Assembly: GCA_028534125.1 (NCBI GenBank)
Contig: CM052816.1
Coordinates: forward strand, 34,350,001 to 34,414,000
Direction: 5' to 3'
DNA: 64,000 nucleotides
From: Lama glama
Lineage: Eukaryota
The notes under the pieces are model-generated. The model was not told where the DNA came from. It did no database searches and saw nothing but the letters and a program-made list of their open reading frames with translations. The translations under genes were made by a program, and so were the position numbers. Each line of letters begins with the position of its first letter. Position 1 is the first letter of the stretch. Below are positions 14,396-57,766 of the stretch, piece after piece.

Positions 14396-15175
14396 CAGGG
14401 CCAATTATATAATTTACAGGGCAAAATAAAATATTGTAGGCCCCTTGTTCTAAACACAAGAAAAAAAAGGCATTAAAGGTACTAAAATATAAAGACCTTT
14501 TCTTTCCTCTATACACTCTCGACTTGTTATGACATTTTATTTGCTATTTTATGTCATTCTAAGTAATGAAAATCAAAAATTTAAATTATTTGCATAAATG
14601 TCACCATTCATCTTTGTATTGTACAATTCCAGTTTTAAATGCAAATGCAAAAGCATTTTAGAGGGGAGAATATAGCTCCAGGGCAGAGTGCATGCATTAC
14701 AATGCACAAGGTCCTGGGTTCAATCCCCAGTACCTCCATTAAAATAAATAAATAAAGCTAGTTATCCCCCCAAAATAAAGAAATAATAATAAAATTGTTT
14801 TAAAGAATTTACTCACATGCAAAATTACTTGCCTTCTTTTATCATTAGAAGCACATTCTTATTTAAATGGGAAGTACAGCTCAGGGCTGTCAGTGACCCA
14901 CTACTCAGTCACAGACCTGCAACCTTACCTTGTATTTGCTTTGAGTCTCACTGAGGAAATCACATATTCCTCAGTAAAGAAAATCATGTGTCTACTTTAA
15001 GTCTGTGCTCATGGCACTGCGAATACCGTTAACAAATGTGGCCTCGGGCAACAGGGAACAAATGGTACATGCTCCATTTTCCTATGGACTTCACTTAGAA
15101 AACACCAGTTCAAAGATAAAATTATGAAGAATTTAAAGATAGCAACAGTGGAGCATTAAACCAAGCATGAGGCCT
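14396..15175 (-). mobile_element. MER45-like hAT-Tip100 DNA transposon
   Basis: Starts CAGGGCC. AAAATTATGAAGAATTTAAAGATAGCAACAGTGGAGCATTAAACCAAGCATGAGGCC resembles the MER45 consensus in antisense. Confidence 0.75.
14661..14801 (+). mobile_element. Camelid tRNA-derived SINE (Vic-1 type)
   Basis: GGGGAGAATATAGCTCC..AGAGTGCATGC..GGTCCTGGGTTCAATCCCCAGTACCTCC head with A/B boxes, A-rich tail, TSD-like AAAG(C/A)ATTT. Confidence 0.88.
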
Positions 15176-21195: not shown

Positions 21196-21353
21196 TGTGG
21201 GGGAAGGTACAGCTCAAGTGGTAGAGCACACGCTTAGCATGCATGAGGTCCTGGGTTCAATGCCCACTACCTCCTCTAAGAAGTAAGCAAGCCTAATTAC
21301 CTCCCGCCACCCAAACCAACCTAACAACAACAACAACAACAACAAAACAAATA
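21196..21353 (+). mobile_element. Camelid tRNA-derived SINE (Vic-1 type)
   Basis: GGGGAAGGTACAGCTCAAGTGGTAGAGCACACGCTTAGCATGCATGAGGTCCTGGGTTCAA head, CCTAATTACCTCCC body, (CAA)n tail, TSD AAGA(T/C)TGAGG at 21186-21195 and 21354-21363. Confidence 0.92.
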
Positions 21354-35263: not shown

Positions 35264-35355
35264 AAGTCTCTCCTTAAAAGATGCCAGCATATGAGGAAAT
35301 AGGTACGTTAAGTTTCTCCTTAAGAGATACCAGCATACAAGGAAATGGGTACCTT
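35264..35355. repeat. Diverged tandem duplication, 2 x 46 bp
   Basis: 35264-35309 and 35310-35355 align without gaps with 7 mismatches. Confidence 0.9.
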
Positions 35356-36194
35356 CAGGACACACAAGACAATGGACCAAAATGGAGAACTGTCCAAAGA
35401 TTAACTACACTCAGAGCTGGAGGAGGAGCCCTCCAGCTGCCCCGCACACGTCTGTCCGAGCACATTCAGGCTCCTGGGGGTCAAGTATGTTACCAATCTG
35501 GGTGGGGGAGACCGTGTGTTCTCCCCTGGACCCCTGCCACCCTGTTCACCAGCAAAGGGGAGGCGGGTTCCACAGGGAACCTCTGCACTGCTAACCTGTG
35601 AGCCGTGGATTCACACTACGTCTGACTATTTTATTTTGTCCCTCTTCTGAGACCGTTGTACACTTTTTTGTTTAGGTTCAACATCCAACAAATTTTTATA
35701 ACTCATGTTATTAACCGTAATAGCTACCTGCAGTTTAGGATGTACCGTGTGACGCGTGCCGCTTTTCTCCAGGACTGACACTAACCCTGCAAAGCAGGTA
35801 CCACTGTCACTGTTCTACAGCTTCAGAAACATGCTCGGTGACGTTAAGTGAATTTCCCAAGGCTGCAAAACTATCAAGTGGCAGGTGTGGGATTTGATCA
35901 TAAATTCAACTGGCTCCAAGGCCCATGCCCTTTCCCCAAATCATGCTATCTTCTACCCCGTACACAGCTGATACCCTGAAGCTTTCACTGTTGACCTCTG
36001 TTGTGTGGTTTGGGAACATCTTTGATGGTTGAGGAGTATTCTATGGTTCTCATAACTGCTGGGGTAGGCATCTATCCTCCCCAACTCTAATTGCAGCCCA
36101 AACTGTCCCTCAGGCTTGCCGTAGAGAGAAAGCTCCTTCTATCTGCTGTTGAAAATCATCAGAAGCCTCCTCCCTGGTGATTACTAAGGCAGGC

Positions 36195-36385: not shown

Positions 36386-39329
36386 TCCTGAAACTGAGAA
36401 TGGCAACCACATCCCCAGCCAGGAGAAGAGGAATGAACATGCTAGTGAGTGCGGGACCCTCCCAGATGTGAGAGATTTGTCATTCCCTGTCTTTCCCAGT
36501 TGTTAGTATGTGTCCTGAAACTTCAGCCCAGTTCAGGAAGGTTAACAAATCTCCATCAAGAGTAAGAAAGTTACACATAAAATATTACTCTTACTAAGTT
36601 TTTTCTACTCATGATGAAAACTCAAATCACCATACATTTATTGATCATAGGGACTGATTTGTTGGGATTGATATACATACAGTCTATCATTTATATACAT
36701 GTAAATATAATGTATATTTATATACGGTCATATGTTTCACATGTTTGTTTCTATATATATTCATGTGTATACATGTATATGTACTTGTGTGTTTACACAC
36801 ACACACACAAGTAAGTAATTTAAAGGCACAATTTCAAAAGATTTTTAAATGTCTACCTCAAGACCTAACGTTAGGAATCTGGGCAAACCTGGATTTCAAA
36901 GAAACTTCCCTCTCTGGGAGTTAGTATGAAACAACTGGGTCCTCCTTTTGGATTCAACTGCCTCTTTATTATCTCCTCAGGCTGAACTTGGCTGTAAGGT
37001 CACACAATCTTGTTGAATCAGCTCAATTTGTTCATTTAAAGTTTGCCACTGATGTGAGTTTAAGTGAGAGCAATTCAGACCTTGTAAGTTGGTGATGTCC
37101 TCAGGTCCTCCGGGCTCTAGATCATTGCTGCCCCCTGCAACCTACCCCACACTCTTGGCTTTTACAGGAAGGTGCATGATCAGCCCCTTGATGCTCTCTA
37201 CTTACTTCTAACTCTCCTGAGTCAGTACTGACCTTAGAGTGGCAGGGGCTCGAGCATTAAAATCCAGGTCCCATATAGTCCACCTATTGGTGTAACTAAT
37301 ATCCATTAACCTCACCTGAAATCACAGAGTTCAGAAAAGGCAGAGAGGACGCTTCCATTCATTCACAGAAGGTTAGCTGAAGACCTCCAGGGCAGCGTGC
37401 ACAACACCTCACTAAGCCAACAGTGAGCCAAAGACCACGCAGACCCCACAGAACTTATTTTTGCTAGAACTGTCTCCAGAGTGACAAGGAGATTTAATGG
37501 CAAAATAGCAGAGAATATTTTATAGAAAAATTTTCTACTTACAATGATTCATCTGTCCAAGCTCTCTCTCCACCTTCCTTGTTTCCATTTCCCCTAAACA
37601 TTCAGCTCTTGAACAATTTGTGTGTGCGTGTGTGTTTAGGTGTCTAACAGAAAATTTTAAGAAGACAAAAATGGAAGGAATAATGTAACAGACAATCCCA
37701 CAGCGTATTAACCGTTAGAAAAGTCACACTGACCATTGAAAATATTTTTATCTTACATATTTTGAATTTTTTTATTTTCTAAAATAAAAGTAGACCACAC
37801 TGCAATTTTCTTTGACTATCCTCTCCCCATGCAGAGGCCCTCATTAGCATGAATTGCATGTGTCTACTTCCAGTCTTCCACACACTCATTAAAATATAGA
37901 GTATACATTATTTTTTTTAATTTACCTAAGTGGTATCATGCTGTATCATCCTGCAAGTTGCTATTTCTCCTCAGCATTGTGTTTTGATGATGTTTACAGA
38001 TCTAGCTGATTCTCCTTTATTTCCTCAGGTCACAGGATAAGTTTGTGTAAGAGAAATAAAATCTGTTTTACTACTTCGCAGTCCAAGAGGCTAGGGACCC
38101 CAAACCACAATCAGCCTACAGCACTGCCCTTGAGAAAAAGCATCAAGTTAACATTTGTCGAATTTTAGTACTGATGGAGAGAGCTCATCAAATTAGTCAT
38201 TAAGGGGTACCTGCCATTACCAAATTCACAAATGAGTTGGGAATGCAATTTTAACACTTGAAATAAAAGATAATGGAGTAGATTCTTAAGGGAATTGTTT
38301 TGAAGGACAAAGTCAATTCAGAGCTAAGAGCGATCACAGTGAACAGGTGTAGTTCGAGGGTTCTTCCTGGAAGAGGTAGTGGTTGAGGCAGGGAATGAAG
38401 GGTGGGAAAAAGTTCAAATGCCCTAAGAGAATACGAAAGGTATGGATTGGGAACATCATGAAAAAGATGTATAGGTTGGAACAAGTATGGAGTAAGTAGG
38501 ATAACCCTGAGTGGAGGGGAGAAAGCTATGAGAGGATGGATGGGGTAAACAGGTGGACAACTCAGACAACAGGACCACAGCTTGTGTTTGCACTGTCACA
38601 GCATGGAGCCTTGCAAGGATATCCATGCAGGGGTGGCTCTCACTGCTCTGTCCACAACTCCTGGGATGTTCCAGGCCCTCTAACACCCCTGCACTTTTGA
38701 ACAAACTAGTTCCTCAGCAGGAATGCCATTTCTGACCCCCTTTCTTTACCGTCAGCTTACATCGCAGGCAGCACACCTCTAAGCCTTCCCTGACACTGTC
38801 CCCCTAGTCGTGATTAGGTTCCCCTTCTCACTCACTCCTACAAGATCTTGGGCTTCCTTCTAGCACAGGCCAGGTCAAACTGGGTAGTAATCTCGGGGTA
38901 ATTATGTTTAGTTCTTTCTTCCCCCTTGAATTTTACATTTATTGGGAAAAGAACTTTGACTTATTTATCTTCTGACTCCAGAACGTAGCTCAGTACCTGT
39001 TTTATAGACGCACTCAATTTATGCTTGAATGAATACCTTAATTATTAACCCAAGAATTATGGATATTCATATAATTTTATATATTTTTAAAATATTTGTA
39101 TGTAAATATTAGGCTAAAAATCATTATTTTGATGCCTCTTGACTTTTAGAATACTTCTCATGAGAAAAAAACAAATTACAACTGATAGCAACATAAAACG
39201 TTATGAAAGATAAGTCGAAGTTCTGTTTGTCCTACAACTCTTCAAAACTCAAAACCTTTTCATCCATAAGAAACCTATGAGCACTTTGATATAACTGAGG
39301 ACACTTCAGTCACGCCATCTCCAAATGGC

Positions 39330-39856
39330 TGGGTTCCTGGCAAAGCCCATTAACAAATCCCGGGAAATAAAAATAGAATCTGGGTAATAAAATAAAATAA
39401 AGTCTAACCTTTTTTTCCTTTGTGCTCAATCCGTTTCACTTGCTCATAGGGTACCTTGCACCTGGCGCTTTGGACCAGATCTCCTAGTGCTAAATGGCTG
39501 TGCCTGACACCTCAGCCCCGGGACTGCACGCAGAAGCGCTGAGCCCGCGCGACACTGCGACTCAAGATGGCGGCGGGTCTCGTGCAGAGACGCGCCTGCC
39601 CTGCGCTCTGGAGTCTGCGCAGCACAGCCGTGCCCCCGCCCGCGAGAACCCCGCCCGCGAGAACCCCGCCCCCTCCGCCCCTGGCTGGCCGGAATCAAAT
39701 CACGCAGCCCCGCCCACAGCCTGTCCCACAGACTCCGTGCTCCAGGGCTTGAGCTCACACCCGCTCGGTTTTTTGATCAAAGAATGAAACTTGCCTTTGC
39801 TTCTGGACCTTCTGCCTTTGCTCGGTCTCATTCTGTAGGCTCCAATGACACCAGGC
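39330..39856 (+). mobile_element. 5' LTR, 3'-truncated in U5, CpG-rich U3
   Basis: Aligns from TG at 39330 with the LTRs at 40970 and 42128, stops after CACCAGGC, and its poly(A) signal reads AATGAA (39783-39788). Confidence 0.85.
39515..39770. promoter_or_regulatory. CpG-island-like putative promoter inside the 5' LTR (YY1 + Sp1/KLF GC boxes)
   Basis: About 29 CpG in ~250 bp by hand count, CAAGATGGCGGC YY1 consensus at ~39563-39574, several CCCCGCCC boxes at 39633-39715. Confidence 0.6.
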
Positions 39857-40633
39857 TGATAAAGGAGATAAGGGGTTCAAGAAAGAGGCTCAACTATCAG
39901 AAACTAGGGTGACCTACCTAGGCTCCATTCTCACGGGAGGTCAGAGAAGCCTACCCCAGGACAGGGAAGCAGCCATCTGCAGCCTCACCCCTCCTAAAAC
40001 TGCAGGACAGCTTAGAAGTTTCCTGGGGATAGCTGGGTTTTGCCCCATCTGGATCCCTAATTATGGTCTAACAGGGAGACCTCTATGTGAAAAGTTGAAA
40101 GGAAAGGATGACGATCCTTTTGAATGGAATTCAGAATGTGGAGCACTTTCAAGAATTGAAAAAGCAGTTACTTCAGGCCCTGCCCTGGCCCTACCAGAGT
40201 TAGCTAAACCCTCTGACCTTTTCATTCATGAGAGAAGGGGAATTATCCTTGAGGTATTAGCTCTAAAACTGGGACCCCCTTAATCTGGTGGTTGCTTATT
40301 TCTCTAAACAATTAAATCAAACTGCTGAGGGACGGCCTCCTGGCTTCAGGGCAGTAGCAGCTATTACAGCCCTGCTCAAAGAGGCTGAGACATTAATGTT
40401 TGGTCAACCAGTCCCTGTGTAGACTCCACACCAGGTTCAGGCTTTATAAGTTCTAAAGGAACAAAATGGCTGTTCCCTGGAACGTCTATTCAAGTTCAGG
40501 CTAGGTAACCGTACAACCTGGCACACGCTAAATCCTGCCATCTTGCGACCCAGGGAAACGCGGCCTCTGGCATGATTGTATAGAAACCACAGACAAGATC
40601 TATTCCAATTGCCCACACCTAGGAAGTCAGCCT
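39855..40633 (+). pseudogene. pol: Retroviral pol fragment (RT C-terminal palm/thumb, connection/tether), frameshifted with stops
   Basis: ADKGDKGFKKEAQLSETRVTYLG..QLRSFLGIAGFCPIWIPNYG..PALALPELAKP; then VAYFSKQLNQTAEG..RAVAA..GQPVPV*TPHQV; then TLNPAIL..HDCIETTDKIYSNCPHL. These are MLV/ERV1-type Pol motifs. YxDD, RNase H core and integrase are absent. Confidence 0.93.
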
Positions 40634-40639
40634 CAACAT

Positions 40640-40809
40640 CAGGGCACAGACAAAAGAACTGGATACCTTCATTTTCAGGAAAAATTGGACACATAACCAT
40701 TATTCTCTTGCTAATATTTGGGCCATATATCTTAAATTGTCTGGTGTCCTTTGTCTTCAAAAGTTTAGACAAATGGTGGTCACTCAGGGATGTGAACAAT
40801 CAGGGCTAA
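40640..40809 (+). pseudogene. env: Retroviral env remnant (TM membrane-spanning segment and cytoplasmic tail)
   Basis: NWIPSF..ITIILLLIFGPYILNCLVSFV matches the gamma-type TM motif LLLxFGPCILNxLVxFV. Confidence 0.85.
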
Positions 40810-40969
40810 GACCTCGAGACAAACACATCTAAAGGTGGCTGGGGAGAATCCCTGCTCCTCCGTCTGGGGTTATGATGGTGCCCAAACCCAACTGGAAGTC
40901 ACAGAAGTTGGGCCTGTGGCCCCCAGTGCCCTTCAAGAATGAAGAGCAGGACAAAAGACAAAGGAGGAA

Positions 40970-41414
40970 TGTGTGACCAGCAAATCCCACTGCGTCCCTG
41001 GAAATTAAAATACAATCTGGGTAATAAAATAAGGTCTAACTTTTCCCCCCCTTTTGCTTTGTGCCTAGTCTAGTTTCACTCGCGCATATGGTGCCAGGTG
41101 CAGAGGCCTTGCACTCAACACCTCAGCTGGGCAGACCATGTGCAGGGGCGCTGCACCCAGCACTTAGATCTGGAGCACAGGGAGCAGCACCTGATTGGCA
41201 AGAATCCCACCCCCTTCCTGCCGACAAGCAGCCCTGCGAAGGGCCTTTTGGGGAGGGGGTGTAATCTAGAGCACCAACTCTAACCTTTCCATTCATTGAT
41301 CAAAGAATAAAACTTTTCCTTTGCTTCTGAACCAAACTCACTCTCATTCTTCTAGGTCAAACACCACCAGGCAGAAGGATCCTTCAAGCTGGATGCTTGA
41401 AAGGATTTGTAACA
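40970..41414 (+). mobile_element. 3' LTR of the deleted provirus
   Basis: Begins TG immediately after PPT AAAAGACAAAGGAGGAA, intact AATAAA at 41306-41311, ends TGTAACA. Confidence 0.9.
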
Positions 41415-42127: not shown

Positions 42128-42600
42128 TGTGTCACCAGCAAAGCCCACTGGGGTCCCTGGGAAAAATAAGATGGAGTCCAGGTGTTAAGGTCTAACCGCT
42201 TCTTTTGTGCTTAGTCTGGTTTCACTTGCCTATAGGAGGCCATGTGCAGCGATCTTGCACCCAAAAAGTTGGATTCAAGTTCCCAGGGCAGAACCACTGC
42301 GCCCAGCACCCGAACCTGGCATGCCCAGCACTTCAGTCTGCAGCGCCCTGAGGAACACAATTACATCTGACCCACAAGAACCCCTCCCCTTGGCCACCCG
42401 AGAGAACCCCATTAAGCAGCCCACCAACAGCCTTTCAGGCAGAGTGTGTGCTCTAGAGTGTGAGCCCGCACCTCTCCATTCTTTGATCAAAGAGAAAAAC
42501 TTTCCTTTGCTTCTGAACTGATCTCGGTCTCATTCCACTGGCACAAGCAACACCAGGCAGAGGACCCTTGCTAAGGCTTGACTCAAAAGAGTCTGCAACA
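42128..42600 (+). mobile_element. Solo LTR of the same ERV1 family, inserted into a MIR (MIR halves ~42040-42127 and ~42601-42700)
   Basis: TGTGTCACCAGCAAAGCCCACTG..TTGATCAAAGAG..CCTTTGCTTCTGAAC..CACCAGGCAGAGG..TGCAACA; the flanks join into a MIR. Confidence 0.88.
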
Positions 42601-56796: not shown

Positions 56797-57766
56797 AGGT
56801 GAGAAAGGTACAAAATTTAGCTGAGAGCCTCCGCCAGCCCACCATACACACAACCATGGGCTTAAGGAACGTGTTGCAACCTAACAAACAAAGTTGTCAG
56901 CTGAATGGAAGTCACTGGGCCATTGTTTGTCCCAAGAAACCATCCCTATGAGACCAGGGGCAGGGACAATTCAAGCAGCTCAGCCACTCAAATAATCTTA
57001 CTTGAAAAGAAGCTGCACTGATGGACTATCATTAAAGACAAAAAGTTTGAAAAGGACTTCTAATCATTTCCAAAGGAGCAGGCTTCTACCAGACATAGAG
57101 GCCTCTGCCTCATAGTTATTTCTCGGTTAATATTTAAGTGCTAACAAATGTAACTTTCTGTACAAACGGCCTGTAACCAGTGCAATTTATATGTGCTTCC
57201 TTCTCCATCCCCTCTAGCTAAAAAGCACTGAAAACGCAAGTGAAAAACAACCAAAACACACTGCTGGCTCCGTTGGCTGAGTCTGAGGACAGTTCCAAGC
57301 CAGTGGTTGAATTTCAAAGGAAAATTTGCATCTTTTTCCTTCTACCTTCTCCGTTCTCATCAGCACATCAGAGCGCCTGGAATCAGCTAGGATTCTAAGT
57401 CAGGACAATATCCACAAATATACAAGTCGAAGCATCCCTCCCACATTGCCCTGGCCAAGGCTGACTGCAGAATGGTGTGGGGCAGCACAGAAGCAACCCT
57501 GGCCGGCTCTGAAGCTGAACGGACACGTGGACGGGGAATGCTGCCTGCCGCCTCAGTGCTAGAAGCGTCACCGCCATAGCACTGACCGACCGGTGAGCCT
57601 TGCGGGGGGGGGGGGGGAGGATTCAGAACGGAGAGAAACAAGGAGCACGCTGGGCTTTGGATACTGGCCCCAGACACTTAAGCCGCATGTCTAAGGAATG
57701 ATTTCCCTGAGCCAGACTCTTGCATCCTCCCATACATTGAAAAGCACTAAAATGATGAACTTGAGG

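Follow-up and report, generated by a model that had tools for sequence, protein, structure and literature searches.

The window analyzed here, a stretch of 64 kb, contains three LTRs of one ERV family, and the first of them (LTR1) has a CpG-rich core in its U3 region. This core is probably a fresh instance of an LTR-derived orphan CpG island, a kind of element that is already known. The explanation toward which we lean, without great confidence, is that the CpG-rich U3 of LTR1, an old class I ERV LTR, has been largely unmethylated in the germline, and has kept and added CpGs that the two sister LTRs (LTR2 and LTR3) have lost. The age of LTR1, the LTR origin of the core and the excess of CpG are the settled parts of this explanation. 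Long germline hypomethylation of the core, with the case of a host promoter included, is probable from the CpG pattern. The elements compared are as follows.

39330..39856, plus strand: LTR1, a class I (gamma-like) ERV LTR with its 3' end missing; 71-72% identity to LTR2 and LTR3
39519..39767, no strand assigned: CpG-island core in the U3 of LTR1; 29 CpG, GC 0.72, CpG observed/expected ratio (O/E) 0.94
40970..41414, plus strand: LTR2, the 3' LTR, a CpG-decayed internal control; 6 CpG, O/E 0.22
42128..42600, plus strand: LTR3, a solo LTR of the same family, CpG-decayed; 8 CpG, O/E 0.25; 75% identity to LTR2

The CpG-rich core and its motifs

The first-pass annotation had counted 29 CpG in the core by hand, compared to 6 and 8 in the whole of LTR2 (445 bp) and LTR3 (473 bp), and these counts are exact on recount. 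The O/E ratio, which it had proposed as a check, is 0.94 in the core and 0.22 and 0.25 in the sisters, and the CpG O/E of the entire window is 0.20. At this background O/E, ~6 CpG would be expected in the 249 bp of the core in place of the 29 observed (Poisson P ~3e-11). Without the duplicated 30 bp (see below), there are still 23 CpG in 219 bp, with an O/E of 0.86. Eighteen other 249-bp windows, overlapping one another, have GC of at least 0.58, and the richest of them has 13 CpG. The portions of LTR1 outside the core are CpG-poor ends, with O/E of 0.34 and 0.22.

The core passes the CpG-island rule of at least 200 bp, GC above 50% and O/E of at least 0.6. Stricter thresholds are at least 500 bp (rules span 400-500 bp), GC of 55% and O/E of 0.65. 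Under the stricter rule a 623-bp interval passes, only by the 249-bp core carrying its CpG-poor ends. The core had been described as the only clear CpG island in the window. It is the strongest one, but a weaker patch at 57501-57700 (13 CpG, O/E 0.70) passes the 200-bp rule as well. With its surroundings (57400-57700) this patch has 14 CpG in 301 bp, GC of 0.59 and O/E of 0.54, and downstream of it there is sequence that we take to resemble the end of another LTR. Elsewhere, at 35264-35800, a 46-bp tandem duplication is located beside a mildly CpG-rich stretch (13 CpG in 401 bp, O/E 0.50).

The sequence of LTR1 is no assembly quirk, as DNA runs from 6 studies carry 78-94% of its words. In this comparison 12 of the 24 listed runs are DNA, from 6 studies and with four organism labels, two possible source runs having been excluded. 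The DNA carriers found in this way are near-identical to LTR1, and no distant orthologue is among them. Two RNA-seq runs with a reproductive-system label and two guessed-RNA runs carry 12% of the words, and two more carry 4%, which gives no evidence of expression in these runs. The core shows ordinary strand folding (z -0.92).

The following motifs and repeats are found inside LTR1.

39484..39639, plus strand: older internal self-similarity with a lag of ~90 bp; 39484-39550 versus 39579-39639, 42/60 identical, shuffle p ~0.013
39563..39574, plus strand: YY1 consensus motif CAAGATGGCGGC; present in LTR1, absent from LTR2 and LTR3
39634..39671, plus strand: 15-bp tandem duplication with GC boxes, unit CCCCGCCCGCGAGAA; 2.5 copies, 100% match; recent
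39654..39681, minus strand: G-quadruplex pattern
39783..39788, plus strand: degenerate polyadenylation signal AATGAA; LTR2 has AATAAA at that place

The perfect YY1 motif that had been noted is confirmed at 39563, in LTR1 only among the three LTRs. The 8-mer core of the motif appears in ~0.2% of 3000 dinucleotide shuffles of the CpG-rich core, a post hoc test with the motif chosen after looking, and 4 further YY1 8-mer cores are located elsewhere in the window. The tandem 15-bp duplication is likewise present as noted, with no mismatch, and LTR2 and LTR3 have one related copy each of the unit. The core contains five CCGCCC GC boxes versus 0.9 in shuffles, and three versus 0.5 when the duplication is left out. 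The older self-similarity, from its alignment, is likely a duplication of a U3 unit, and the U3 of LTR1 is longer than those of LTR2 and LTR3.

The G4-capable minus strand that had been described is also there, but it is not distinctive. The pattern is one of nine canonical ones in the window, and it was rejected as evidence because sister LTR3 has one too. The lost polyadenylation signal of LTR1 was rejected on a similar basis, as LTR3 is also without a signal and the feature is uninformative. Just outside the 5' end of LTR1, at 39311-39329, there are two opposed YY1-like half-sites (GCCAT...ATGGC, 6 bp apart). A CpG is retained there, at 39313, and the main YY1 motif follows roughly 250 bp further downstream.

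The provirus and the age of LTR1

All three LTRs are on the plus strand, with pairwise identities of 71-75%, and they are located inside 3.3 kb, either as a local cluster or as the remnant of tandem proviruses. The elements between LTR1 and LTR2 are as follows.

39857..40540, plus strand: decayed pol fragment (RT thumb/connection, RNase H-like tail); match to MLV RT with E 1e-24; O/E 0.16
40693..40755, plus strand: possible env C-terminal remnant; TLV_coat E 0.02, under the curated cut-off
40960..40969, plus strand: polypurine tract ahead of LTR2, from sequence

The adjacent pol is heavily decayed, as had been stated. Its match to MLV/XMRV RT (E 1e-24, compared to 1e-6 for foamy RT) starts at residue 6 of the pol frame, which terminates at 40281, and a weak RT_RNaseH match is found at 40267-40419. 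The gammaretrovirus-like RT and the paired LTRs with a polypurine tract before LTR2 place the element in class I. With its MLV-type RT and its order of LTR-pol-env-polypurine tract-LTR, the provirus is similar to other class I gammaretrovirus-like ERVs, and differs from them by its internal deletion and decay. The homology of LTR1 to its sisters ends at 39856, ~40 bp short of the sister ends, and directly abuts pol. From this arrangement we infer that one deletion took the end of LTR1, the primer-binding site, gag, pro and the start of RT from a class I provirus.

The earlier designation of LTR1 as a 5' LTR is likely but unproven, as a target-site duplication linking LTR1 and LTR2 was not found at the flanks of the ends used, a loss that is expected at such an age. 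In the 5' block the divergence between LTR1 and LTR2 is 28%, versus 38% and 31% for the other pairs; the two are not the closest pair in the remaining blocks. On balance LTR1 and LTR2 appear to be twins of a single provirus, and we hold this with fair confidence.

The non-CpG divergence is 25% between LTR1 and LTR2, 27% between LTR1 and LTR3, and 24% between LTR2 and LTR3. The resulting ~0.15 substitutions per site per branch correspond to 30-70 My, an upper bound if the copies stem from different subfamilies, with reported substitution rates of 5e-9 (PMC8605555) and 2.2e-9 (PMC5001583). Within the two end blocks that are poor in CpG, changes unique to one copy number 26, 16 and 28 across the three LTRs, with no significant difference (chi-square p 0.17). 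The pol fragment is 51-69% identical to six short database fragments, which are themselves 41-76% identical to one another, and the best long Pol proteins, from a lizard, are 48% identical. Judged by these divergences, LTR1 is old, tens of millions of years. Its CpG excess therefore needs either protection from germline methylation or recent CpG gain.

A simply young copy had been named beforehand as the case against an unusual history for the core. Young LTRs commonly satisfy island criteria (PMC12582260, PMC8555987), and LTR1 is not linked to the decayed provirus by a target-site duplication. However, LTR1 is truncated and fused to a pol that is depleted of CpG, and its own ends have few CpGs. 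It also differs from its sisters by 24-27% outside CpG and is common to four organism labels, while the best full-length Pol matches reach 48% identity. It is very improbable, and largely refuted, that LTR1 is a young copy of a CpG-rich family. The variably methylated IAPs and human LTR12C (Costello et al. 2021, PMC8555987; Long et al. 2016, PMC5001583) are similar to LTR1 as CpG-dense LTRs proposed to be open through loss of KRAB-ZFP targeting and binding of CXXC proteins. They are young, however, and CpG-rich across the family, whereas LTR1 is old and alone of three neighbors in keeping its CpG, both sisters being at background O/E.

No further copies of the LTR family are found in the 64-kb window beyond these three, and a search of metagenome contigs and viral contigs gave 0 matches. 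A shorter LTR motif gave 19 matches, 0 of which extend past the motif, and a locus search for relatives based on pol found 0 among 8 and 0 among 227 candidates. The LTR comparisons were made with these two sister copies.

Comparison of the core with its sisters

In the block 39654-39770, LTR1 has 10 CpG in 117 bp, compared to 2 in 99 bp and 2 in 110 bp in the sisters (p 0.007). The somewhat longer block 39654-39790 aligns to both sisters better than all 300 shuffles. The island is therefore LTR sequence, given the good alignment of block 39654-39770 to LTR2 and LTR3. For the left half of the core, the alignments to the sisters are weak (p 0.007-0.20).

In six pooled local alignments, the CpGs of LTR1 are kept in the sister in 5 of 41 cells, compared to 29 of 67 for GpC (p 0.0007), although these cells depend on one another and one alignment of the six scores no better than shuffles. 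The LTR1 CpG faces TG, CA or TA in 12 of the 41 cells, and in 24 it faces letters other than CG, TG, CA or TA. Compared with the control, deamination products are not significantly in excess (12/41 versus 11/67, p 0.15). The island is thus in part ancestral U3 that has been retained, and in part new CpG or misalignment. The core aligns to the U3 of the sisters and several of its CpGs face TG or CA there, so that part of the CpG richness is the original state of the family. The earlier description of LTR1 as an LTR converted into an island finds no support in this comparison.

The low identity of the left half bears on the possibility of a CpG-rich segment that entered the LTR later, having arrived by gene conversion from a younger family member or as a CpG-rich insertion, and is now methylated and decaying. 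The U3 of LTR1 does have extra sequence, 13 of 32 CpGs are in gaps versus both sisters, and the identity in 39461-39645 is just 37-50%. On the other hand, LTR2 and LTR3 are themselves 49% alike over 39461-39645, and the extra sequence resembles its own neighbor and the U3 of the sisters. Moreover, in the right half of the core, which is collinear with LTR2 and LTR3, the CpG count remains five times that of the sisters. A younger segment is therefore improbable.

The changes specific to LTR1 in block 39654-39770 are 9 weak-to-strong and 1 strong-to-weak, compared to 11 and 11 in the end blocks (p 0.05). Parallel CpG decay in both sisters could explain 3 of the 9, which leaves a non-significant 6:1 (p 0.125), and these changes give a hint of GC gain in the block. 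Such a bias is the pattern expected if GC-biased gene conversion at a recombination hotspot had built the island from a decayed LTR, with hypomethylation being secondary or absent. The many CpGs that face non-deamination letters would fit this origin, and many orphan islands are reported to overlap tracts of this type (PMC11170920). The bias is weakened, however, by the possible parallel decay, and it is limited to ~250 bp, with no rise of GC in the ends. In addition, newly made CpGs would decay anyway if they were methylated. Overall, this origin is slightly more doubtful than that of a younger segment.

Germline methylation and promoter activity

The CpG O/E of a region is reported to track the age of its hypomethylation in sperm (PMC5793779), and with O/E rising in this manner, long germline protection is the simplest cause of the high value in LTR1. 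The first-pass annotation had come to a similar reading. An old copy with 10 CpG versus 2 and 2 is in agreement with it, but more than half of the CpGs in the alignments stand opposite letters that are not deamination products, so that CpG gain or misalignment contributes as well. The hypomethylated retrotransposon regions of sperm (Qu et al. 2018, PMC5793779) are similar to the core in that high O/E records long germline hypomethylation; methylation was measured in that study, whereas for LTR1 it is deduced from CpG retention. Distal hypomethylated regions have a half-life of 39 My according to the same source, and an O/E of 0.94 at a distal site would imply an unusually long-lived region.

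With long germline hypomethylation as the preferred reading, the following steps may be proposed. Duplications within U3 would have raised the density of CpG and GC boxes, and the deletion would have taken away the primer-binding site and gag, a frequent starting place of KRAB-ZFP silencing. Silencing of gammaretroviruses is reported to begin at the primer-binding site (PMC12958612), and for CpG-dense repeats outside KRAB-ZFP control, loss of methylation and binding of CXXC proteins have been described (PMC8555987, PMC5001583). Sp/KLF, YY1 and CXXC proteins could then have held the CpG patch open. The open GC boxes would allow weak initiation on both strands, with YY1 favoring initiation just upstream of itself. 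Deletion of the primer-binding site alone cannot explain the escape, since LTR2 and LTR3 are also without an adjoining site and have nonetheless decayed.

The core most likely acts as a small orphan CpG island, with a predicted activity of weak, probably two-way, germline-biased initiation, or of an enhancer. It is similar to the orphan CpG islands described by Kocher et al. (2024, PMC11170920) as a small island away from detected coding exons, and transposon promoters and GC-biased conversion are given there as likely sources of such islands. The origin of new CpG islands is an open question, and the turnover analysis in that work masked repeats, so that LTR-internal islands like that of LTR1 were excluded. 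LTR bases are reported to make up 1.3% of human CpG islands and 0.2% of start-site islands (PMC12582260), old LTR sequence being rare in the latter.

The LTR-derived start sites of mammals (Li et al. 2018, PMC5932608) share with LTR1 the LTR, the promoter motifs and a tandem repeat, and by likeness to them a native LTR promoter in LTR1 would be expected to initiate in the sense direction. The repeat-associated start sites in that study tend to higher germline methylation, and any start site or transcript of LTR1 is putative.

Exaptation as a host promoter, which had been suggested from the CpG retention, would mean that a host gene or lncRNA uses the island as its promoter, be it the main or an alternative one, and that selection keeps it. 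The long CpG retention, the perfect YY1 motif and the multiplied GC boxes are consistent with this. At young start sites in human, LTRs are reported as the most common type of repeat (PMC5932608). SP motifs are reported to drive initiation in both orientations, and YY1 to drive it at positions just upstream of its own site (bioRxiv 2023.06.27.546584). The small share of LTRs in human start-site island bases argues against it, as does the layout of the motifs. Read along the plus strand, YY1 comes before the GC boxes, which is the LTR-like order, and on the minus strand YY1 is antisense. Housekeeping promoters usually have GC boxes before YY1, the reverse of the retroviral U3 layout, and YY1 sites are known components of retroviral LTRs. 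YY1 can also recruit silencing at gammaretroviral LTRs, and helps to silence MLV in stem cells (PMC12958612).

The coding content of the window points in the same direction. None of the 552 stop-free frames of at least 45 aa has a family match at the Pfam curated cut-off, and thus no host coding exon was detected, although short exons and lncRNAs escape this test and the RT frame is also without a Pfam match. The sole meaningful weak matches are retroviral; eleven weak non-retroviral ones, all under the curated cut-offs, were treated as chance. Among 22 and 233 candidates, no database protein matches the frames of the core, and coding use of the core was rejected, its 97-aa frame and its 61-aa frame (which starts at the ATG of the YY1 motif) having no database match. 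No strong plus-strand splice donor is found in 38500-41000, where the best score is 2.4 with simple weights. With no host exon in these frames and with YY1 able to recruit silencing, the suggestion of a host promoter is so far unsupported, and we consider it unlikely.

A more specific form of it is a little less likely again. In this form, the U3 duplications of the old LTR1 would have enabled it to escape germline methylation, while LTR2, its twin at a distance of 1.1 kb, decayed. LTR1 would then have turned into a CpG-island promoter specific to the lineage and driving a host gene or lncRNA, with tandem duplication still adding GC boxes to it. If true, it would be the birth of a CpG-island promoter with an internal control of the same age. 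If LTR1 and LTR2 are twins, they were identical at the start, and would be a matched pair for asking which added motifs allow escape from methylation. Being one locus, it serves as a good example and not as a new principle, and any target gene or transcript is putative.

A literature search by title or start of the abstract found nothing on this locus. The window may match human 5q22-q23 near 114-116 Mb if synteny holds, an extrapolation via SYNPO, MYOT and SLC22A4 that serves only as a lead to the genes nearby. Among RNA families, one tRNA-like match is found in the window, at 21203-21275. This segment and another at 14697-14742 have tRNA-like heads, and are probably tRNA-derived SINEs.
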